64,000 bases of DNA from a virus. Of this stretch, positions 2,042 through 50,693 are shown in pieces; the first letter of the stretch is position 1; each line of letters starts with the position of its first letter. The stretch covers positions 1 through 64,000 of the IMG/VR virus record IMGVR_UViG_3300027969_000042. One strand, 5' to 3'. The notes beneath the pieces are model-generated. The model was not told the DNA's origin and searched no databases. It worked only from the letters and a program-made list of their open reading frames with translations. A program made the position numbers and the translations under genes.

Positions 2042-2191
2042 TTAATTATTTTTAATAAAGTATATATTAAATATTTTTTTTATACTTTCTTTACGAGAAT
2101 ACCTTCTATATGACTTATGTGAATTCATCATATTCATCATATGAGTATAAACATTTATACTACCTGTTCTCCTTGGTTTTAATAAGTACAT
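2042..2191 (-). CDS. Small ORF (49 aa) not in the track; ends ...RKESIKKIFNIYFIKNN
   Basis: Manual translation; carries a variant of the RxxKIxxI motif. Confidence 0.45.
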   Translation of the reverse strand: MYLLKPRRTGSINVYTHMMNMMNSHKSYRRYSRKESIKKIFNIYFIKNN

Positions 2192-2292: not shown

Positions 2293-2544
2293 CTATTTTT
2301 TAAGTATTTGATCAATTTTAGCTTCTCTGGCTTCTGCTTTCTCTCTTAATAAACGAGCCTCTCTTTCTTGTGGAGTTTCTTCACGTTTTTCAGACTTATC
2401 TGCTTTATAGTAACCTAAAAAGTCTTCAAGAGCACTGGTATAATTACCATATCGGTCAGATTTCATATAACTACCTAAATCGGAGTATTTATCTTTTATA
2501 CTATATGATTTTCTAAAATCATCAAAATAATTTTTATCGTTCAT
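2293..2544 (-). CDS. Hypothetical protein with C-terminal REAKIDQILKK tag
   Basis: 83-aa ORF. Confidence 0.75.
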   Translation of the reverse strand: MNDKNYFDDFRKSYSIKDKYSDLGSYMKSDRYGNYTSALEDFLGYYKADKSEKREETPQEREARLLREKAEAREAKIDQILKK

Positions 2545-16235: not shown

Positions 16236-16808
16236 TTGAATATAAAATATGGTAAAATAGATATAGATCTAGATAATTTGTTTATTCCGGATGTAGTATC
16301 ATTTTTTAGTTGGAGAGATGACTTCTTTAAAATACCTAATTCCGAAAAGTTTGATGTTTATTTACATGGTAGTTTTTTACATAAACTACTTGATAATGTT
16401 GGTAATCCTAATGATATTGATATTATTTTAGCGGGAAATCATAATATAGAGGACATTGAAAATGTAATTTACCAAGGTATAAAAATAGGTATAGAAAAGT
16501 ATGGTATATTCATTGATATTCGTTGGGATGATAATATAAACTATCTTTCTCCCGAATTAGCAAGTATTTGTGGATTTGATACATCTAAATCACTTGAAAA
16601 TTCTTCAAATTCTGTAAACGATTATGAATTCTATGTACATGGTGATAAGTTGATAATTGATGGTAAGACTAGAACAAGCTATAAATCTTCAATAAAGTTA
16701 GCAGATAGTTTATACAAAGTTACCTATACTGGAAAAGTAAGTAAAAAACACACATCTAAAGCGAAAAGTGGTTATACTTATAAAGAACCACTTTTAATTA
16801 ACTACTAA
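16236..16808 (+). CDS. Nucleotidyltransferase-like protein, paralog 2 (TTG start)
   Basis: YLHGSF...PNDIDIIL; N-terminal DNA nearly identical to 15696..16217. Confidence 0.6.
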   Translation: MNIKYGKIDIDLDNLFIPDVVSFFSWRDDFFKIPNSEKFDVYLHGSFLHKLLDNVGNPNDIDIILAGNHNIEDIENVIYQGIKIGIEKYGIFIDIRWDDNINYLSPELASICGFDTSKSLENSSNSVNDYEFYVHGDKLIIDGKTRTSYKSSIKLADSLYKVTYTGKVSKKHTSKAKSGYTYKEPLLINY

Positions 16809-17505
16809 TAATTAGTAAATATCCTACTTTACCAGGTTCAGTTTTAGAACAATGTCCCATTGCATCAATCTTTGTTTCTTCACCAGTTAGTTTTATCTTA
16901 GTAAGTTTTTGTTTTCCTAAAATACGTCTTTCACCTTTACAAGTATTACAAGGGTTTAGACCTACTTTACCTTTACCAAAACAAAATGGACAATCTAGAT
17001 CTCTATATTTTCCTGTTCCTTCACACAAATCACAACCATCTTCTGAGTCAAATATTTTCATAATATTACCATCATTATCTTTGATAACAATTTTAGAAGA
17101 AAGATCTTTTCCAGTACCATCACAAGGTTTACAACGAACCCATCTTTCGTATTCTAGTGTACCATCAAAGGTGTCATCAACTTTAATATGAATATTATAA
17201 ACTTCATTCTTTTTAAACTTTTCATATTTATCCTTAGTATCATCATATGAGTAGTCAAAGTTTGTTTCAAAAAGTTCAAAGTATTCGTTATAACAATTTC
17301 CAAATTTACTTTTCTTATCATAGTCTTCTCTTTCATCACCACATAAAATATCATAGGCTTCGGTCATCTCACCAAAGATAATTGGATCTCCGCCTTTGTC
17401 TGGGTGGTTAGTAAAAGAAAGTTTATAGTAAGCTTTCTTAATTTCTTTTTCGGTTGATGTATTTGCCACACCAAGTAAGGAATAATAATTTTTATTTAAG
17501 TTCAT
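16798..17505 (-). CDS. dnaJ: DnaJ-like co-chaperone (J domain plus CxxCxGxG zinc finger, short C-terminus)
   Basis: NYYSLLGV...KKAYYKL...HPDKGG; CKPCDGTG, CDLCEGTG, CPFCFGKG, CNTCKGER. Confidence 0.9.
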   Translation of the reverse strand: MNLNKNYYSLLGVANTSTEKEIKKAYYKLSFTNHPDKGGDPIIFGEMTEAYDILCGDEREDYDKKSKFGNCYNEYFELFETNFDYSYDDTKDKYEKFKKNEVYNIHIKVDDTFDGTLEYERWVRCKPCDGTGKDLSSKIVIKDNDGNIMKIFDSEDGCDLCEGTGKYRDLDCPFCFGKGKVGLNPCNTCKGERRILGKQKLTKIKLTGEETKIDAMGHCSKTEPGKVGYLLIISS

Positions 17506-17707
17506 GTGCTATTATTAGTTCTGATATTTTTTCTTCTATAACCAAATATTCATAGTTTAAGACAATATCAGAAACATCTTCTGAAAATTCATCTTCAATT
17601 ATTAAACAATCTGTGTTCTCGATAAAAGAAATCAATTTCTTTAATCCTTGGCTCTGATAAACCGTTAAAATCTTTTCCTTACTTAAATAGCGCTTGTTAA
17701 ATCCCAT
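17492..17707 (-). CDS. Hypothetical protein
   Basis: 71-aa ORF overlapping the dnaJ start. Confidence 0.65.
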   Translation of the reverse strand: MGFNKRYLSKEKILTVYQSQGLKKLISFIENTDCLIIEDEFSEDVSDIVLNYEYLVIEEKISELIIAHELK

Positions 17708-17847
17708 ATTTTTATTAATTTATTTATTTTTCTTACTCTTAAAAACTTTCTATATTCTACCCAATTCATTCCTGTAGGAACAGGTTGTCCTTGTACACCT
17801 GTTACTCCAATTGGTCCTTGCACACCAAATGTTATATTATTATTCAT
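17683..17847 (-). CDS. Small ORF (54 aa) with collagen-like GxQG triplets and RVRKINKLI tag; not in the track
   Basis: Manual translation MNNNITFGVQGPIGVTGVQGQPVPTGMNWVEYRKFLRVRKINKLIKIWDLTSAI. Confidence 0.55.
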   Translation of the reverse strand: MNNNITFGVQGPIGVTGVQGQPVPTGMNWVEYRKFLRVRKINKLIKIWDLTSAI

Positions 17848-17855
17848 ACATTTGT

Positions 17856-19553
17856 TTAGTTATCATATTCTACCTCTTCAATAGAAGAAAATACTTCTTT
17901 ATTTATCTTAATAATTCTATCAAACATTTCTTGATTCAAAATTGCGTGATGAACAACAAATATATTGATGTTATAATCATTTGCAAACGATTTAAGAAGC
18001 AATAATATAGAATCTATACCTTCGATGTCAATTGATGAAAAAACCTCGTCCAAGAACAATATATTGATATGTTTCTTAGTTCTAATTAGTTTTAAATAAG
18101 CAATTAAGATGGCTATATTTACCTTTTTAGATTCTCCGGTACTTAATGAATCATGTTCAACAACAGAACCTAACGTTTTAATTTCTGAACTAAATGTCTC
18201 ATCTAATTTTACATCAAATGGTAATCCCATTTTCTTAATGTTTTCTGCAATAAAATGATTTATTGGTTTAATAATACCTGCTATAATTGATTTCTTAGCA
18301 CCATCTTCACTAAATACTCTTGTAAGTTCTTTATAGAATAATTCTTTCTCTTTGCAGATAGTTATATGATCTTGACTAACAGTTTTTTTAGAATCTAATT
18401 CACCAATAGTATTTTGGAATTCTTGTACATTTACTGATTCACCAGTTTCTTTTGATTTCTTTGTATTAAGAGCATCAATTTGAGACTTATAATTTCTAAG
18501 AAGATAGTTTAAATCATTAAATGAAGTTGTTGTACTATCTGCAATAGTTTTTAACTTTGTTTGTTTTGATTTAATTGAAGTGATATTATCATTTATTTCT
18601 GATAATACTGATTCAAAACTTTCTTTCTTTTCAACTAAAGTGGTTCTAAGACTAATAAAGTGATCTGAATTGAAATCTGTACTACAAGTAGGACATTTAC
18701 CAGAATCATAAAGACTTATTTCTCTTTGAACATTTCTAACTTCATTTTGAGTATTACTTAATTGTCTTTTTTCAATATCTAATTCGTCAGTAAGTATCTT
18801 TTCTTTTTCTTTAATCTTATCTACTTTTTCTTTAAGAAGTTTATAGTCTTCTTTTTTAGAATTCATTTCCTCAGTAAGAGTTTCAATTTCTTGTTGTATA
18901 TTCTCTTTTGCCTTCTCAATTGCTTTCTCAATAGATTTCTGTATTGAACCAATAGAATCTTCTAATGTTCTAATTTCAGAATCCAATGATGTCATTCTAA
19001 GTTTGTTATTCTTATTTATATCTTTAAGAATACCATTTAAGATATTGATCACTTCTAGATTAAATAATTTATCTAATAGTAATTGTTTCTCTTCATTTGT
19101 TAAAGAAATAAAGTTTTTAAAGTCATTGATAGACATTGAGATAAATGATTTGAATGTTTCTATATCTAAACCGATATACTTTTCAATTTTATCATCTATG
19201 TTTGCTTTACCTGCTCTTTCATTGGGAATACCGTTTTCAATCAATTCTAATACACCAGGAGAAATACCTCTTTTAATTTCTACATCTGTTCCGTTTGAAA
19301 TAAATTTTATACGATTTAATAGTTCACCGTTTATACGGTTTGGCAACGAAGAAAGTTTGTGCCATTTTTTTGCTTTACCAGATTTTACTTTTCCGTAAAT
19401 AGCATATTCAAAAGATTCAAGTAATGAAGATTTACCATTACCATTATTTCCTACAAGAAGAACCAATTCTCCTTTTTCTGTGTTTAATTTTAATACTTGT
19501 TCATTATTTCCAAAGGATTTATACCCTCTTATTCCTATTTCACTAATTAGCAT
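17856..19553 (-). CDS. T4 gp46/SbcC/Rad50-like recombination endonuclease ATPase subunit
   Basis: Walker A GNNGNGKSS, coiled coil, CPTC zinc hook, LSTGE signature, LFLDEV Walker B, VVHH. Confidence 0.92.
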   Translation of the reverse strand: MLISEIGIRGYKSFGNNEQVLKLNTEKGELVLLVGNNGNGKSSLLESFEYAIYGKVKSGKAKKWHKLSSLPNRINGELLNRIKFISNGTDVEIKRGISPGVLELIENGIPNERAGKANIDDKIEKYIGLDIETFKSFISMSINDFKNFISLTNEEKQLLLDKLFNLEVINILNGILKDINKNNKLRMTSLDSEIRTLEDSIGSIQKSIEKAIEKAKENIQQEIETLTEEMNSKKEDYKLLKEKVDKIKEKEKILTDELDIEKRQLSNTQNEVRNVQREISLYDSGKCPTCSTDFNSDHFISLRTTLVEKKESFESVLSEINDNITSIKSKQTKLKTIADSTTTSFNDLNYLLRNYKSQIDALNTKKSKETGESVNVQEFQNTIGELDSKKTVSQDHITICKEKELFYKELTRVFSEDGAKKSIIAGIIKPINHFIAENIKKMGLPFDVKLDETFSSEIKTLGSVVEHDSLSTGESKKVNIAILIAYLKLIRTKKHINILFLDEVFSSIDIEGIDSILLLLKSFANDYNINIFVVHHAILNQEMFDRIIKINKEVFSSIEEVEYDN

Positions 19554-19601: not shown

Positions 19602-19886
19602 TTATTCTTCATCAAAGAAGCCAGAAAAATCTATTTCATCCAGTCTTCCTAAAATTTCATCATAAGGAATAACTTTTTTCATTATATCTAGTACTAAGTT
19701 ATTATAACCAGACCATAACTCTACCTGACCTATAATTTGTTCTAAATCATCATCTATTGTTAGTGTTACAAAATTATCTTTATAATAAAAAGTGGTGTCA
19801 TAGTAGTTATCTTCATAATTTAATGAAATAAGTACTAAAACACCATCTTCAAATTTTCCTAAATATTCAATTATATCAAAGGTCAT
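19602..19886 (-). CDS. Hypothetical acidic protein
   Basis: 94-aa ORF in a coupled gene run. Confidence 0.65.
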   Translation of the reverse strand: MTFDIIEYLGKFEDGVLVLISLNYEDNYYDTTFYYKDNFVTLTIDDDLEQIIGQVELWSGYNNLVLDIMKKVIPYDEILGRLDEIDFSGFFDEE

Positions 19887-20110
19887 TATCCTAATATAGT
19901 TTCAATTTTTTCTTCTCTTTCTTCTTGAGTTATATTTTTCAAGTAACCACCTCTAACTAAGGTATTCATAATACATTGTGCTTGTTTTGTTCTACCATCA
20001 ACATATAAATTCATCATATCTCTGTAATAGTCATGTATATTTTTTCTCTCGTCTTCTGTGTTTAGATTTGATACTTTATCAAGGTCTAAATAGTAGTCTT
20101 CTAATTTCAT
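19886..20110 (-). CDS. Hypothetical protein with C-terminal REEKIETILG tag
   Basis: 74-aa ORF. Confidence 0.7.
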   Translation of the reverse strand: MKLEDYYLDLDKVSNLNTEDERKNIHDYYRDMMNLYVDGRTKQAQCIMNTLVRGGYLKNITQEEREEKIETILG

Positions 20111-20116
20111 ATTTAA

Positions 20117-20389
20117 TTATAATTTTTGTCCAACAACAAATTCAATTTTTTTGAATTTATCATCAGTATCGGTAAAAACGATTTGTATCTTATCCACATC
20201 AACAAATTCTTTTGCTTCTCCAGAAAATTCGTTTACCATTACGTCTTTTTTATAGATTACATCAATTCCAGGTTCTTCTCCTAAAAATCTACGCATATCT
20301 TCTTTAATTTGTGAGATTTTCCAATCATCATTTACAAAGTCAATTTTTGAAATATATTCTCTAATTGAAAATTCTTTAAGTGAACTCAT
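20117..20389 (-). CDS. Hypothetical protein
   Basis: 90-aa ORF. Confidence 0.7.
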   Translation of the reverse strand: MSSLKEFSIREYISKIDFVNDDWKISQIKEDMRRFLGEEPGIDVIYKKDVMVNEFSGEAKEFVDVDKIQIVFTDTDDKFKKIEFVVGQKL

Positions 20390-20422: not shown

Positions 20423-20755
20423 CTAAAAGTTGGGTTTATCTAAGTAGTATGTATTGTGTTCAGTAATAAACTCAAAGTTATCGTGTAATGTCTGACAATA
20501 TCCATTAAATGAGTGAACATCTTCTTGTGTTAGTTTAAACCATTCACCTCTAACTCTTTTACTTCTAAAAATTCTATGAAGACTTGATTCTATTTTAGTT
20601 CCCCATTTTGATGTAAATGAGTCAACTAAATAAAGATCTGCTGCATTACCAGTCTTAAACTCTTTCAGACGTTTTTCAATCTTTCTTTTAGTAAAACCTA
20701 TTTTATGTAGTTTTTCACCTTCTATATCCGCACAAATTAAATAAATGTTTGTCAT
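20423..20755 (-). CDS. GIY-YIG-related T5orf172/MUG113-like nuclease domain protein
   Basis: IYLI...HKIGFT...KRLKEFKTGN...ESSLHRIF...RGEWF. Confidence 0.8.
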   Translation of the reverse strand: MTNIYLICADIEGEKLHKIGFTKRKIEKRLKEFKTGNAADLYLVDSFTSKWGTKIESSLHRIFRSKRVRGEWFKLTQEDVHSFNGYCQTLHDNFEFITEHNTYYLDKPNF

Positions 20756-20766
20756 AGAAGTATATA

Positions 20767-21169
20767 TTACTTCTTCTTGACTCTCTTTTTTTCTTTTTTT
20801 ATGGATTTAACAACTGGTTTTTTATAGACTTCAACTAAAGTATCACCATAGTTGACTTTTTCATAGTAATATCTAATAGATACCAAATTATGTCTTCTAT
20901 CTATTTCTAATCTACCAAAAACTTTAGCACCTTTGATGTTTACGATATAAGGACCATTTTTTAATAACCTACCTTTTTAATATACTATCACAAACCTCTC
21001 TTCTTATAAGAGGTCTGGATTTATAATTAGAATAAACAACCATTGTATCTGAACTTCTAACACTACTTATTGATTCCATTCCATCATATCCATAGGTATA
21101 GTATTGTACCTTTTGTTGTGAATAAACAAAAGTGGTTAGAAATAGAAATATGATTTTTATTATTTTCAT
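20767..21169 (-). pseudogene. Signal-peptide-bearing protein split by a +1 frameshift in an A5 run (20974-20978)
   Basis: 66-aa ORF MKIIKIIFLFLTTFVYSQ... stops at AAA AGG TAG; removing one A continues it through 70 more codons (GRLLKNGPY...KKEKKRVKKK*). Confidence 0.6.
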
Positions 21170-21348
21170 TTAGAAGATTTCAATAGTGTAAAGTCATGTT
21201 CTCGAACATAAACTCCAGGACTAATATACATATTCTTTTCTGGTAGACCTAATATTCTTCTTAATTTTTTTAAACGATTATGCCTTCTAATTCTTCTTAC
21301 TAACCTATGATCAATTTCATTGGATATAAATCCTGGACTTCTACTCAT
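21166..21348 (-). CDS. 60-aa peptide with two tail-sheath N-terminal-like motifs flanking an RLKKLRRIL tag
   Basis: Likely start ATG 21348: MSRSPGFISNEID...RLKKLRRILG...MYISPGVYVREHDFT. Confidence 0.6.
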   Translation of the reverse strand: MSRSPGFISNEIDHRLVRRIRRHNRLKKLRRILGLPEKNMYISPGVYVREHDFTLLKSSK

Positions 21349-21667
21349 TGACTTTAAATATATTATTGATTTTTCTTTTTCTTGTTGTGTGTTTTGTATC
21401 ACCATATTGATAATCAGCATAAAATAATTGACCACTAGGGGCGGGTAATGGTTTAACGGATACTAAATCAAGGCCGATAGTTTGTGCAGCAACTTTCATT
21501 GCGATTGGAAACATACTTGGAAAACTTGAAGTACTTGTTGTAGTTTGTGATTGGAATCCAGCATATTGAGACATCCAGGTGGATTTAGATCCAGTTAGAC
21601 CCATATTACCAATAAGATTATCCCATTTATATTGGGTATCTTTTCTGGTATTTTTTAAATTTTTCAT
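21341..21667 (-). CDS. Truncated major-capsid-protein (T4 gp23-like) fragment with C-terminal RKRKINNIF tag
   Basis: FPIAMKVAAQTIGLDLVSVKPLPAPSGQLFYADYQYG resembles the gp23-family segment (..IAYDICGVQPMTGPTGLIFAMRSRY); only 108 aa. Confidence 0.65.
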   Translation of the reverse strand: MKNLKNTRKDTQYKWDNLIGNMGLTGSKSTWMSQYAGFQSQTTTSTSSFPSMFPIAMKVAAQTIGLDLVSVKPLPAPSGQLFYADYQYGDTKHTTRKRKINNIFKVNE

Positions 21668-27806: not shown

Positions 27807-30800
27807 TTAGTTTGAATATGTCACACTTAGTCTTTCACTAATTAGTATTTCTAAATCAATTTCTACATAGCCAGAAAAAATCTCAGTAGATTGTGCAAAT
27901 AATGTTATAAAAAAATCACTTGAGCTTGCAATACTATTATCTAATATAAAGAAAGCTTTTGTTAGTGGTATTATATCACCAGTAGTAAAATCTTTAACCA
28001 ATCCATTTACTGTAAATGGAGTTGTTGTATTCACAAACGTATTCACACTGGATGCAACTACTGTTGATGAATTAGAACTATTTATTATTTCTCTTGGTGC
28101 GTCACCAGAAATTGAGATAACTCCAACTAATAATGCATAGATTGGTTCCGAGTTATTAAATGTTGCCCTACCCTTTAATTTATATTTTTTATAAATATCT
28201 CCACTATCATAAGTTACTAAACCAGATAGCTCGGCAATTGTACTTTCTACCAAAGTTTCTAAACTACCTTGTATATATTGATATGAAATACTTTCTCCTG
28301 TACCTCCTGTACCTGCTGGTCCTTGTGGTCCTTGTGGACCGGCTGGACCTGCTGGTCCTTGAGCACCTGTATTTCCTTGAAGTCCTTGAGCACCTGCTGG
28401 TCCTTGAGCACCTGCTGGTCCTTGAGCACCTGCTGGTCCTTGAGCACCTGTATTTCCTGTATTTCCTAGGCTACCTTGAGCACCTGTTCTGACAAAAGAG
28501 AATATAATTGAATCTCCTTGATTAAATGTTCCATTTCCAGATTGGTAAGTTGCGGTAAAATTCCTATGTGTTGTTAGACTTGTTATTGTAGATATGTTAT
28601 ATACCACAAATGTATTACTATCACCTTTCTTACTTAACATTAAAGTACCTCTATTTGGAAAAGTTCCAGCAGAAGCTATACTATTAAAGTATGTTGACAA
28701 TGAAGTACCATTTATATCATTTGTATTTACATATAAAGTACCTGTAGAAAGTGATGAGGTTGCTGAAAAGTTTATAGTTCCATTTACAAGTGAATTAGTT
28801 GCAGAAAAAACACCAATTACATATTCAAATCCAACTGAAAAATTACCAGTAGCACCTGTGGCACCAGTTGCACCAACACCTGCAATAACTGATAATGTTC
28901 CATCAATTGACATAGTAAGTCCTGTACCTATATTAAGTGAATGTGTGTGATCTTGTCTTGCAAAAGCATTTTTAATACCTTCTGTATTAGTTTTCCCTAT
29001 TGGTTCTGGAACTCCAGTTGCTAAAGCATCTAAACCATTTGGTAAATGTCTTGATGCATGTGATTCAATAGTTACTCCATTTATTTGTCCTACTCCTACA
29101 ATTGAGTTACTTGCCATTACTAAATCATTAGCCATTGGTCTATTACCATTAACTAATAAGTATTGTGGATGGTCATCTGCTGATAATCCTTGTAGATTAC
29201 CATGTGTTGAAGAAGCATTTACTCCACTTGATTTAAAGCCAATAACTGGTCTAATATCCAATATATTATAAATTGTACTTAATCCTTCTTGTATTATAAT
29301 ACTTGCAATAGGTACAATTGCATCTTCAAAATAATTTGGTGGAATTGGAAGTGGAGCTCCTTCTACATCAATAGCTCCTTCGTATTGTTGTTGTCCTACA
29401 ACTAATAAATACTTTTCAGTATCACCTTCACCATTTACATATAAAGTGTGTTTTGTATAATAAGATGCAGACATACCAACTAAACTTCCATTTATATCAT
29501 ATAAATTAGTAACAATATTTGTATCTGTTATTATACAGTCTGTTCCATTTAAAACAAACTGACTAAATGTAATTCCTAAACCGCCATATGGCATATAATT
29601 TTTACTACCAAAATAATAAGAACCTCTTGATACATTTAAACTAAAAGTTGCACCCTCTGTTACTAAAGAACCTCTTTCATAAATTGAACCTAATGCTTTC
29701 CTATTAAAAGTAATTAATTTATTAGTAGTATGTTCAGCATCTATAAAACTTCTATCAATTAAAATAACTTCACCATTGTGTGTTATAACTCTTCCTAAGA
29801 CAATAGTATTTGTAGTATTTGGCATTGATGCGGCTTCTGAAAATAAACCGGTATTAGGAAAATTTTCATTTACATAAATATACACTGCAGAATTAGTTGC
29901 ACTAACTTCAAATGAAGTCTCAGGCCAGTCTATTCTTAAAATATTATGATTATTAGACTCTAAATATCCATATCCACTTGATATACTTACTGTCTGACCT
30001 GAATACATTGATATTTCGCCTCCTGTCAAAACACCCATTCCAGAACCTTCAAAAATAAGTGTTGATAAATCAGTGTGAGTTCCATCAGCATATGTTATTG
30101 ATATTTTTCTTGTAATATCAAACTCACCATCATCTCTATCTAAGAATCCCCAATAAATATTTGAACTTTCATTAAATATTTTTTCATGTGAACTACTTCC
30201 TTGAAATGTTCCAAAAGTATTAGGATGTGCAATATAAAAATCACAATCACAATCTTTTATAGAAACTGAGTTTAATGTAAATTTTGATGCAGTACCAACA
30301 TTTCCGATTTCAAATCCTTTAGTATAGTTACTAATTTCAAAAGAAGATATATTTATATTGGCTCCATTTTGTCCATAAAATCCAGAGTCTGAGTCATAAA
30401 CTCCAGTAATAGATCCACCAAAAACACTAATAGATGAATTTTCACCACTTATCCAATTTGATATAGAACCTGTTACACCTACCTCAGTATAATAATTTTC
30501 ACAATTTGCAAATGCTAATATTCCATTTTCGGATTCGACTTTCATACCATATGAATATTCACCATTAAAATCAATATACTCCCCAAAAAAAGATGTATCT
30601 TTAGTAATACCTCTTACTAAAATCATTGTATCACAATCATACATAGATAACTTATGTACTAATGAAAATCCATCTAAATCTTGACATACAATTGCTGCAT
30701 AGCCTGGACCTACACCTACTATAGTTAGATATGATAAGTATATACTATCATTACATATAAATAAATGTTGATTTAAACTATTAGGAATAACCTGTGTTGT

Positions 30801-31757
30801 TTGAATATCACTACCTTCAATACTTATATAAGATTTTCCAGTAAAATCTATTGTATCTTCTTCAAAAATACCTGGTCCAATCGAAATATAATATCTATTC
30901 TCAGATGATGAATCAGTGATTGAGTCAACGGCTGCTTTAATAGATGTAAAGTCACCACCTATTTTACTAACATGTATAACATTAGGATCTTTAGGTGTGT
31001 TATCTAATTGTGCCCAATCATTATTTGTGTAAATATATGAGTGTGTACCATCATAATACATAGAACCACCAGTAGGATTTAAAGGAGTTATAATTGGTAT
31101 TAAGTTAAAATTATTTGTTGCTAATGAACTAAATGTTGCAGATGTAGTAAGTGTATCAATTACATTAGTTACATAGTTTTGAACATCTTTATCAATTAGA
31201 AAAGGTGTTTTTGTAGTTAATATATCTATTTGTTCTTTTAATCTAATAAGAGCTAATTTTGATTCATTAGAAGTTGAGAATTCTAACGTAATACCCTTAT
31301 TACTTTTTAAACTTATTTTTAAAAGATTATTAGATACATTTGTGTTTATAATATAAAATGGATCAATAGTATATTTTACTATTAAATCAACATCCATGAT
31401 CTTAATATTTCTATCAGATTCGGTTATGGGTCTTAAAAATGTAGTATAACTAAATGGTGCAGTAAAATAACCAACAACTCCTTGAGTCGAATTATCAACA
31501 TAATCATTTGTTTGTAATAATGTTGAAATTTGTTGTTGTAGTTTAGATTGTGCTAATATAGTATCATCAAAGTTTATGAAATCTAATGTAATTAGCTTAC
31601 CACTTTTTAGTGTAACTTTTAAAAGATTTGCTTCTGAAGTAACATCTGTAATGAATGTTGGTTTTAAAGTAAATGTTAAATTTCCACCATTATCAAAAAG
31701 TCTTATACTTTTATCAGAGCCTATTGGCTTTAAAAAACTATCACTACTATAACTCAT
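27807..31757 (-). CDS. Tail fibre/spike-like protein with pectin-lyase-like module and collagen repeats
   Basis: 1316 aa; [18 protein letters not shown]...IGPGIFEE; HGNLQGLSADDHPQYL; HASRH; GAQGPA repeats; paralog of 31796..37420. Confidence 0.75.
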   Translation of the reverse strand: MSYSSDSFLKPIGSDKSIRLFDNGGNLTFTLKPTFITDVTSEANLLKVTLKSGKLITLDFINFDDTILAQSKLQQQISTLLQTNDYVDNSTQGVVGYFTAPFSYTTFLRPITESDRNIKIMDVDLIVKYTIDPFYIINTNVSNNLLKISLKSNKGITLEFSTSNESKLALIRLKEQIDILTTKTPFLIDKDVQNYVTNVIDTLTTSATFSSLATNNFNLIPIITPLNPTGGSMYYDGTHSYIYTNNDWAQLDNTPKDPNVIHVSKIGGDFTSIKAAVDSITDSSSENRYYISIGPGIFEEDTIDFTGKSYISIEGSDIQTTQVIPNSLNQHLFICNDSIYLSYLTIVGVGPGYAAIVCQDLDGFSLVHKLSMYDCDTMILVRGITKDTSFFGEYIDFNGEYSYGMKVESENGILAFANCENYYTEVGVTGSISNWISGENSSISVFGGSITGVYDSDSGFYGQNGANINISSFEISNYTKGFEIGNVGTASKFTLNSVSIKDCDCDFYIAHPNTFGTFQGSSSHEKIFNESSNIYWGFLDRDDGEFDITRKISITYADGTHTDLSTLIFEGSGMGVLTGGEISMYSGQTVSISSGYGYLESNNHNILRIDWPETSFEVSATNSAVYIYVNENFPNTGLFSEAASMPNTTNTIVLGRVITHNGEVILIDRSFIDAEHTTNKLITFNRKALGSIYERGSLVTEGATFSLNVSRGSYYFGSKNYMPYGGLGITFSQFVLNGTDCIITDTNIVTNLYDINGSLVGMSASYYTKHTLYVNGEGDTEKYLLVVGQQQYEGAIDVEGAPLPIPPNYFEDAIVPIASIIIQEGLSTIYNILDIRPVIGFKSSGVNASSTHGNLQGLSADDHPQYLLVNGNRPMANDLVMASNSIVGVGQINGVTIESHASRHLPNGLDALATGVPEPIGKTNTEGIKNAFARQDHTHSLNIGTGLTMSIDGTLSVIAGVGATGATGATGNFSVGFEYVIGVFSATNSLVNGTINFSATSSLSTGTLYVNTNDINGTSLSTYFNSIASAGTFPNRGTLMLSKKGDSNTFVVYNISTITSLTTHRNFTATYQSGNGTFNQGDSIIFSFVRTGAQGSLGNTGNTGAQGPAGAQGPAGAQGPAGAQGLQGNTGAQGPAGPAGPQGPQGPAGTGGTGESISYQYIQGSLETLVESTIAELSGLVTYDSGDIYKKYKLKGRATFNNSEPIYALLVGVISISGDAPREIINSSNSSTVVASSVNTFVNTTTPFTVNGLVKDFTTGDIIPLTKAFFILDNSIASSSDFFITLFAQSTEIFSGYVEIDLEILISERLSVTYSN
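28384..28450. repeat. 18-bp tandem repeat (about 3.7 copies) encoding the collagen-like GAQGPA
   Basis: CCTTGAGCACCTGCTGGT x3 plus a partial copy. Confidence 0.9.
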
Positions 31758-49499: not shown

Positions 49500-50693
49500 T
49501 TAGTCTAACATTTCTTCTACTAAACACTCGTAGAAAAATTTATCATAATCATTGTTCTCAATATCTAAATATTGTTCTCTAATTACTTCTAATTCTCTTT
49601 CTTTCAACTTAGTACCATTGTACTTTGATAAAAGCCAATCGTATTGTTTATCATTTGGAGTAGAAATTTCTACTAAGTTTCCACCATTATCGAAGTAAGT
49701 TTTACCTTTTTTCTTTTGATTTCCTCTTCTTGTTGATTTTTTACCACCATTTCGCATCATTATATCATCTGCACCAGTGTTATCATACCAATCTTCATAG
49801 TAAGTAACGTCTCTGCTCTTAGTACCACTTCTACTCCAAGAACTTCCACTATCAGCTCTTTTAGTTCTAGTAGCATAGTTATCCCAGTCTGCAGGATAAG
49901 AAGCTGTAGTATAAGTTTTGAAAGATTTACCTTCATAAACTGATGTATCTCTTTTTGTTGGTAAGTTTTCCCAATCAACTAATAAACAAGCACTCGCTAA
50001 ATTTACTAAGTGTCTTATATCTTGATTTTCACTTTTAGTGTGTTCTGAATAATAACCTACTGAAACATTTGTACATTCTGGAATAAGGTCAACAAACTCA
50101 GCAGAGTCAGTGTAAACACCACCATCATCTTTAATATATTTTAATTTGTAATCTGATTTGTTTAATTCAGCACAAAAAGCATCTGCAAATTCATCTGAAC
50201 AACATCTTGCCCAAGATTGGTGTGTAATAATTGAGGTAGTACCTCTTCTATCAAAAGAAATAATTCTATCATATATACCTTTAAATTCACCATATTTTGC
50301 TGCTAAACCAGAACCAATACAACCAACTTCTTCACCAATGAAAAAGTAGTATGTTCCTGGAATGTTATGTTTCATCATCCAAATCATAACTGATACGCCT
50401 GCTTTATCATCAGCACCAAGTGTAGTTGTGCCATCAGTTCTAATAGTCTCACCATCAAGTACATGTTTTACTGGTTCGTGTTTACTAGAAACTGTATCTA
50501 AGTGAGAAGCAAAAATTGTTCTTGATTCTCCGATCTTGTAGAAGTAATTTCCGTGAGTGTCTTTACTGATGTCTTTTGGTAAATAACCAAGACTTACCAT
50601 TTCTTCTAAACAAATATCCTCATATCCGTGAGGGTAAGTCTTTGAAGTCAGTTTAAGAAACAACTCAGGAATAAATTTGTTTACGTTTATCAT
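49500..50693 (-). CDS. M28/M20-like zinc peptidase with low-complexity C-terminal extension
   Basis: ASHLDTV, LGADDKAGV, GEEVGCIGS, ISFDRRG, YTDSAEF, NVSVGYYSEHT. Confidence 0.88.
   Translation of the reverse strand: MINVNKFIPELFLKLTSKTYPHGYEDICLEEMVSLGYLPKDISKDTHGNYFYKIGESRTIFASHLDTVSSKHEPVKHVLDGETIRTDGTTTLGADDKAGVSVMIWMMKHNIPGTYYFFIGEEVGCIGSGLAAKYGEFKGIYDRIISFDRRGTTSIITHQSWARCCSDEFADAFCAELNKSDYKLKYIKDDGGVYTDSAEFVDLIPECTNVSVGYYSEHTKSENQDIRHLVNLASACLLVDWENLPTKRDTSVYEGKSFKTYTTASYPADWDNYATRTKRADSGSSWSRSGTKSRDVTYYEDWYDNTGADDIMMRNGGKKSTRRGNQKKKGKTYFDNGGNLVEISTPNDKQYDWLLSKYNGTKLKERELEVIREQYLDIENNDYDKFFYECLVEEMLD

Follow-up and report, generated by a model that had tools for sequence, protein, structure and literature searches.

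A 60-codon gene in the genome of an uncultured giant phage encodes a shortened, fast-evolving copy of the strand that links tail-sheath subunits, joined to a short basic helix. The same helix is found on mini-copies of the capsid, head-protease and polymerase proteins in this group of phages. The gene contains two S-P-G-[VF]-x3-E-x-D motifs and belongs to a large unnamed family of 50–100-aa proteins whose profile aligns with the N-terminus of the tail sheath of related megaphages. Literature searches and all family libraries examined returned no description of such genes, and the function we propose for them below is inferred from sequence alone.

Organization of the sheath-arm gene and its neighborhood

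The window analyzed here is a 64,000-nt stretch (positions 1 to 64,000) of IMG/VR virus record IMGVR_UViG_3300027969_000042, a contig of 177,545 bp (hereafter G000) with about 28% GC. Its nearest named relatives are the uncultured 642-kb and 635-kb phages LR756502 and LR745206, which belong to the cluster of the largest known megaphages (PMC9723777). Features discussed below are as follows, in window coordinates.

21166–21348, minus strand: 60-aa tagged sheath-arm mini-protein gene
21310–21339, minus strand: arm motif 1 (SPGFISNEID), hypervariable among close relatives
21244–21285, minus strand: basic helix, or tag (RHNRLKKLRRILGL), of the R-x-x-K-[IL]-x-[KR]-[IL]-[LF]-G-L type, its helical form being predicted
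21187–21228, minus strand: arm motif 2 (YISPGVYVREHDFT), the conserved arm of this subfamily
21341–21667, minus strand: partner gene encoding a 108-aa MCP N-terminal fragment (propeptide-like region through the V-x-P-x-x-x-P-x-G strand) with a tag-like C-terminus
20767–21169, minus strand: downstream translationally coupled signal-peptide gene, frameshifted in the window
20423–20755, minus strand: T5orf172/MUG113 (GIY-YIG-like) gene that flanks the cassette in all relatives
17683–17847, minus strand: tagged mini-ORF of 54 aa with collagen-like triplets
2042–2191, minus strand: tagged mini-ORF of 49 aa

A sequence-only reading had described this ORF as carrying two tail-sheath N-terminal arm motifs flanking a basic tag, directly downstream of a capsid fragment whose ORF it overlaps by 8 nt, and that observation was confirmed. 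The two motifs lie at residues 4–13 (S-P-G-F-x3-E-x-D) and 43–52 (S-P-G-V-x3-E-x-D). The pattern SPG[VIF]x3ExD occurs exactly twice in the six-frame translation of the whole contig, both times in this ORF, whereas about 0.003 occurrences are expected from residue frequencies and none appeared in 100 shuffles. The start of the gene overlaps the stop of the 108-aa ORF by 8 nt (ATGAGTAG), and its stop overlaps the next ATG (ATGA), which is typical of translational coupling. The upstream ORF is a genuine MCP N-terminal fragment (Pfam Gp23, E 5e-5; phrog_138, E 4e-6) and matches residues 14–132 of the contig’s own 575-aa major capsid protein (BLASTP E 2e-17). The flanking T5orf172 gene was identified with Pfam PF13455 (E 7.5e-18) and PF10544 (E 6e-11).

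The coupled downstream gene encodes a small signal-peptide protein. A tblastn search with the intact 123-aa homologue from locus L015 (L numbers denote loci of related genomes and contigs) splits into two frames in the window, corresponding to ORFs of 66 and 39 aa. The whole gene is absent from the near-identical relatives L031 and L034, so it is an insertion polymorphism.

In LR756502, LR745206 and three IMG/VR contigs, gene order is the same: a 317-aa gene, a 95-aa gene, the MCP N-fragment, the small ORF, the T5orf172/GIY-YIG-like gene, and a 90-aa gene. The small ORF in these genomes starts with the same arm motif, followed by a basic R-x-x-K-I-x-K-I-F-type stretch. Overall, the pair of MCP fragment and peptide is syntenic in more than 12 contigs (L004–L008, L015, L031–L039). 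In two protein clusters (P numbers denote protein clusters), P0178 and P0180, the latter with 11 members, the MCP fragment and the sheath mini-protein are naturally fused, which links the two genes functionally. A programmed frameshift joining the two ORFs was considered, but the frame offset differs between genomes (+1 in the window, L006 and L007; −1 in L004 and L015), so that separate, coupled genes is the simpler reading even though true fusions exist.

Homology to the N-terminus of the tail sheath

Searches with the window peptide itself found nothing, either by tblastn against the phage database or in Pfam and PHROGs, and a search of phages with P0002 was likewise negative. However, a profile built from three of the relatives’ peptides found 212 protein clusters at 90% identity, 56–81 aa in length, with E values down to 1e-30. 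An exhaustive HMMER search of 1.84 billion representatives found 59 clusters at 50% identity, with all true hits 32–104 aa long; P0152, P0162 and P0182 were spurious long hits. Every named member is annotated as a hypothetical protein, and no Pfam or PHROG family covers them. The S, P, G, D, R, K and I positions are invariant in the family.

Several lines of evidence tie this family to the tail sheath. The relatives’ sheath is a 1283–1330-aa protein, with the 1283-aa protein of LR756502 at L012 confirmed as a sheath by phrog_34521 (E 4e-92), and its N-terminus carries K-R-P-G-I-F-I-E-E-x-D. The canonical mini-proteins align colinearly with sheath residues 5–48 (BLASTP E 0.002), and longer members continue through the sheath motifs K-G-P-x-N-x-P and D-F-x-x-x-F-G. 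Profile–profile comparison of the family with sheath N-termini gave 98.1% probability (hhalign E 8e-14) over sheath residues 5–63 of the related >600-kb megaphages, interrupted by an 11-residue insertion that is the tag (11–15 residues across the family). A long member, P0154, searched against 2.3 Gb of phage DNA hit only the sheath N-termini of the >630-kb phages. The best local BLASTP match of the window peptide within a 1296-aa sheath is its second motif against residues 8–25. In contractile tails the sheath N-terminus pairs with a neighbor’s C-terminus, and this two-stranded handshake augments a hairpin in the next ring (PMC10304247).

The window protein is nonetheless a fragment paralogue rather than a sheath, as it has no Pfam or PHROG hit and lacks the sheath core and C-terminal domains. 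No sheath gene was found in the 177.5-kb contig, either with PF04984 or by tblastn with the relatives’ sheaths, so that comparisons rest on sheaths from other genomes. The arm resembles generic sheath N-termini (for example that of the L020 sheath) more than the K-R-P-G-I-F-I-E-E arm of the relatives’ sheaths. Window ORF 27807–31757 (1316 aa) was considered as the missing sheath but is a collagen-repeat fibre. A terminase origin for the C-terminal half of the canonical mini-proteins was also considered because the terminase large subunit (TerL) of relatives (L021 1526–3664 and L022 1697–3841) has I-I-T-S-T-P-N-G-x-N-x-F, nearly the same string as the post-tag segment, and is hit by the profile at E 0.007–0.04. 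Given the colinearity of long family members with the sheath, we treat this likeness as coincidental.

Variable architecture and rapid evolution

The usual layout of the family is arm, tag, and sheath hairpin. Of the 120 best hits, 115 have a single arm, the tag, and the hairpin segment ending in F-P-Q-I-W, while five, at 81–94% identity to the window, have two arms. A 92%-identical peptide is carried by a 611-kb contig. In the window’s subfamily the post-tag hairpin (I-I-T-S-T-P-K-G-P-x-N-F-P type) is absent and replaced by a second arm, and the window gene is therefore a derived variant of the family. A 46%-identical two-armed form occurs in IMG/VR and metagenome contigs, and I42, S43, P44, G45, V46, Y47, E50 and D52 of the second arm are invariant across seven sequences down to that identity.

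Bivalency is not stable. In L031 and L033/L034 the flanking genes are 93–100% identical to the window in DNA, yet the first-arm region is replaced by unrelated sequence, while the tag plus second arm remains 93% identical. Against L034, the tag stretch is 93% identical in nucleotides, whereas neighboring bins are about 49% and 32%. The first arm is present in the window type, the L015 type, and, in another version, the L032/L039 type. L032 has a stop inside arm 2, and L038 consists of the tag plus arm 2 only. The second arm is conserved in L031 and L033–L038. The conserved core of this subfamily is therefore the tag followed by a C-terminal arm, the reverse of the canonical order, which argues for a modular arm-plus-tag logic.

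Both genes of the pair evolve much faster than their neighbors. Against L034, the peptide has dN 0.26 and omega 0.38 and the MCP fragment dN 0.126 and omega 0.30, compared to dN 0.004–0.019 and omega 0.02–0.10 for flanking genes. More distant pairs give omega 0.45–0.83 for the peptide versus 0.11–0.20 for neighbors. These values must be interpreted with caution because they rest on 55–60 codons, and fast evolution with omega still below 1 also fits relaxed constraint. The gene is broken or degenerate in L008, L005 and L032, and the arm motif is lost in LR745206. A sigma-70 promoter scan gave fewer sites than shuffled sequence, and so says nothing about timing of expression.

A tag shared with fragments of other core proteins

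AlphaFold2 predicts a helix at residues 8–32 of the window peptide with moderate confidence (block pLDDT 73–84), with low-confidence, mostly unstructured ends, as expected for arms that fold on binding. Overall confidence of the two models obtained was low (pLDDT 62–64; 64 for the window peptide), and the helix is the best-predicted part of both.

A tag HMM ranked seven small ORFs at the top of the contig. The best hit is the window peptide (E 1.6e-4). The others are the MCP N-fragment; a 77-aa ORF at contig 69875–70108 that copies MCP residues 510–534 with the tag inserted (E 9e-7); its 43-aa upstream neighbor (contig 70095–70226); the 49-aa ORF at window 2042–2191 (E 0.011); a 47-aa ORF at contig 170732–170875, minus strand, that copies residues 142–199 of the 730-aa prohead protease; and the 54-aa ORF at window 17683–17847. 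The 43-aa and 77-aa ORFs overlap and form a second coupled pair (contig 69875–70226, minus strand, outside the window), with homologues in two relatives (L023, L024). No parent protein was found for the 43-aa and 49-aa ORFs. The 54-aa ORF has about four collagen-like triplets and matches the collagen region of the 1874-aa fibre protein at BLASTP E 0.004, which is weak evidence because the sequence is of low complexity.

The protease-derived ORF is conserved as a 47–62-aa tagged ORF (also in L027 and at 50580–50741 of contig G001) and copies a D-[IL]-V-x-D-P-G-F stretch of the prohead protease/scaffold protein (contig 160745–162937). The parent itself has a tag-like S-K-I-N-E-L-F-N segment about 40 residues further on. 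In LR745206, a 79-aa tagged ORF (L026 255–494; LR745206 83154–83390) carries the D-F-A-S-L-Y-P-S motif of family-B polymerases (PolB) and matches the polymerase genes of three relatives. These genes encode only 512–515 aa, so the polymerase may be split.

Different tags use different codons, which indicates conservation as protein and excludes the tag as a DNA element. Tag-like motifs are enriched in the last 25 residues of the contig’s proteins, with 7 observed versus 0.6 expected for the strict pattern and 13 versus 3.3 for the loose one. Several small neighboring proteins (window 2293–2544, 17492–17707, 19886–20110 and 20117–20389, all minus strand) end in an acidic variant, R-E-x-K-I-x-x-[IL]-[LI].

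Possible roles of the sheath-arm mini-protein

The analysis establishes that the gene encodes a mini-paralogue of the N-terminus of the phage’s own type of contractile tail sheath, carrying the arm strand (P-G-[VI]-[YF]-x-x-E-x-D) that in sheaths forms the inter-subunit handshake beta-sheet, and that this strand is joined to a conserved basic helix shared with mini-genes copying short pieces of the MCP N- and C-termini, the prohead protease and PolB. It likewise establishes that the ancestral layout has become arm, tag, arm in the window’s lineage, and that the gene is conserved, coupled to an MCP fragment, accessory, and fast-evolving. Binding, and any effect on assembly, are inferred. As the reading we rank first, we tentatively hypothesize that the peptide is a modular adaptor, in which the arm would dock by beta-strand complementation onto sheath subunits at the handshake site, as a fragment binds its parent protein, and the tag would dock onto one unidentified common partner. 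The result would be modulation of sheath polymerization, most probably inhibition or sequestration, of the phage’s own sheath or that of a co-infecting relative. In this view the gene behaves as an accessory, rapidly evolving gene and not as a fixed structural part, and the second arm is the working arm and the first an optional extra valency. Parent-derived fragments can inhibit their parent proteins (PMC9245647). However, inhibition of the phage’s own sheath would need a rationale such as timing or self-immunity.

The interpretation offered by the sequence-only reading was partly supported. It had proposed a bivalent sheath mimic that caps or cross-links sheaths and that forms, with the MCP fragment, a two-gene virion-mimic cassette. 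Alignment of the motifs to sheath N-terminal arms, conservation of the ORF, recurrence of the tag, and synteny of the pair, some of which had been set out beforehand as checks, all came out in favor of sheath mimicry. Bivalency, however, is not the family’s design, and fixed bivalent capping or cross-linking is not shown. The term virion-mimic cassette is too narrow because the pair is part of a wider set that includes non-virion proteins (PolB, prohead protease).

Among alternatives, the best surviving, though unlikely, is a structural edge piece: a virion or assembly component that completes the handshake sheet where the sheath lattice ends, at the baseplate-proximal or terminator-proximal ring, with the MCP fragment doing the same at a capsid lattice edge and the two arms imitating the two-stranded handshake sheet. 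Terminators and initiators do join the handshake by strand augmentation (PMC10304247), the peptide carries exactly the arm element, it is fused to or coupled with an MCP arm fragment, and it lies on the same strand downstream of fibre genes. Against this, the gene is dispensable or degenerate in several relatives, its first arm is swapped between genomes with near-identical flanking genes, it evolves 10–50 times faster than its neighbors while sheath N-termini are conserved, it is not located in the tail module, and the tag also occurs on PolB and protease fragments.

An immune decoy is somewhat less likely. In this reading the tagged fragments would imitate epitopes of core phage proteins (MCP, sheath, protease, PolB) that host sensors recognize, and would block or mislead those sensors. 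Bacterial STAND sensors detect MCP, tail proteins and DNA polymerases (bioRxiv 10.64898/2026.01.04.697583), the fragment set covers hallmark proteins, and evolution is fast. By analogy, the MCP fragment would cover the region equivalent to the T4 gp23 Gol peptide. However, the sensors described recognize whole core folds rather than 10–20-residue strands, a binding decoy would be expected to trigger such sensors rather than block them, and sheath sensing is only conjectured in that paper.

About equally unlikely is tag-driven cargo, in which the tag is a sorting signal (for example for capsid targeting, clamp binding, or protease/chaperone delivery) carried by many small proteins and the arm an evolutionary leftover with no binding role of its own. 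Enrichment of tag-like motifs at the C-termini of many unrelated small proteins and the better-predicted helix favor this. However, the arm residues S, P, G, E and D are as invariant as the tag across the family, and independent fragments of other core proteins keep their parents’ most conserved motifs. Least likely is a decaying remnant duplicated by recombination next to a homing-endonuclease-like gene and carried along without function, suggested by the flanking T5orf172/GIY-YIG-like gene, local indels, the L032 nonsense variant, the frameshifted neighbor and the origin of the fragments in gene termini, but weakened by 212 clusters with intact ORFs and invariant residues in a stop-rich genome, omega of 0.3–0.5 rather than about 1 for most pairs, protein-level conservation of the tag, and maintained translational coupling.

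Comparison with described systems shows partial resemblances. The peptide shares the arm strand of contractile sheath proteins (T4 gp18 type; PHROG 23 and 34521; Pfam PF04984/PF22671 region), and the canonical family is colinear with sheath residues 5–63, but a basic helix is inserted, a second arm replaces the post-arm hairpin in the window’s version, and the gene lies far from the tail module. The tail terminator (P1 gp24) and sheath initiator (gp25/TssE type) extend the four-stranded handshake sheet by donating terminal strands (PMC10304247), as an isolated arm could do. Those proteins are folded domains without sequence similarity to the sheath arm and are essential and conserved, whereas this peptide is a sequence copy of the arm, is dispensable in some relatives and evolves fast; it gave no family hits to a gp15- or gp25-like fold, and its model is a single helix with low-confidence ends. 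Plant and animal microProteins and engineered dominant-negative fragments (PMC9638782, PMC9245647) are small proteins derived from an interaction element of a larger protein and act by binding that protein family. The window peptide is likewise homologous to such an element, its binding being only inferred. These are known from eukaryotic transcription factors and photoreceptors or from synthetic libraries, and we found none described as natural phage genes and none with a shared tag. The T4 capsid-targeting sequence and the clamp-binding C-terminal tails of T4 gp43, gp33 and gp55 are also short linear motifs shared by otherwise unrelated proteins and presumably read by one partner, but the tag is unlike them in sequence and varies in position (internal or C-terminal).

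A broader and more speculative possibility, which we consider unlikely on present evidence, is that these megaphages run a modular system of self-fragments plus tag. Short copies of the most conserved interaction strands of core proteins (sheath, MCP, prohead protease, PolB, fibre) would act as built-in binders for those proteins, and one shared helix would hand the bound target to a common partner such as a chaperone, a protease, a compartment or the capsid. The two-armed peptide would be a bivalent version bridging two sheath subunits, and the system would serve to time assembly or to sabotage co-infecting relatives. If the arm really docks on the sheath, the mini-protein would be the first natural phage microProtein made from a piece of its own structural protein, and the wider set would be a previously unknown way for a virus to address its own, or a rival’s, core machinery. 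It would also offer ready-made peptide probes for the sheath handshake, a conserved feature of phage tails, tailocins, T6SS and other contractile injection systems. The family additionally gives a concrete handle on the many unannotated small genes of the largest known phages.

Other genes of the window and its relatives

The sheath proteins at L012 4322–8173, L013 4067–7954 and L014 4404–8294 are two to three times the usual size, and the sheath-family match lies only in the C-terminal third and at the extreme N-terminus. The 1316-aa fibre-like protein at window 27807–31757 (minus strand) has a long G-x-x collagen tract and two copies of an N-terminal repeat of about 75 aa, and lies upstream of a 1076-aa glycosyltransferase-like gene on the same strand. 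Just downstream of the mini-gene cluster, window 16798–17505 and 17856–19553 (both minus strand) encode a DnaJ-like protein (J domain plus zinc-finger domain) and an SbcC/Rad50-like ATPase. A phage DnaJ is one conceivable reader of a basic-hydrophobic tag.
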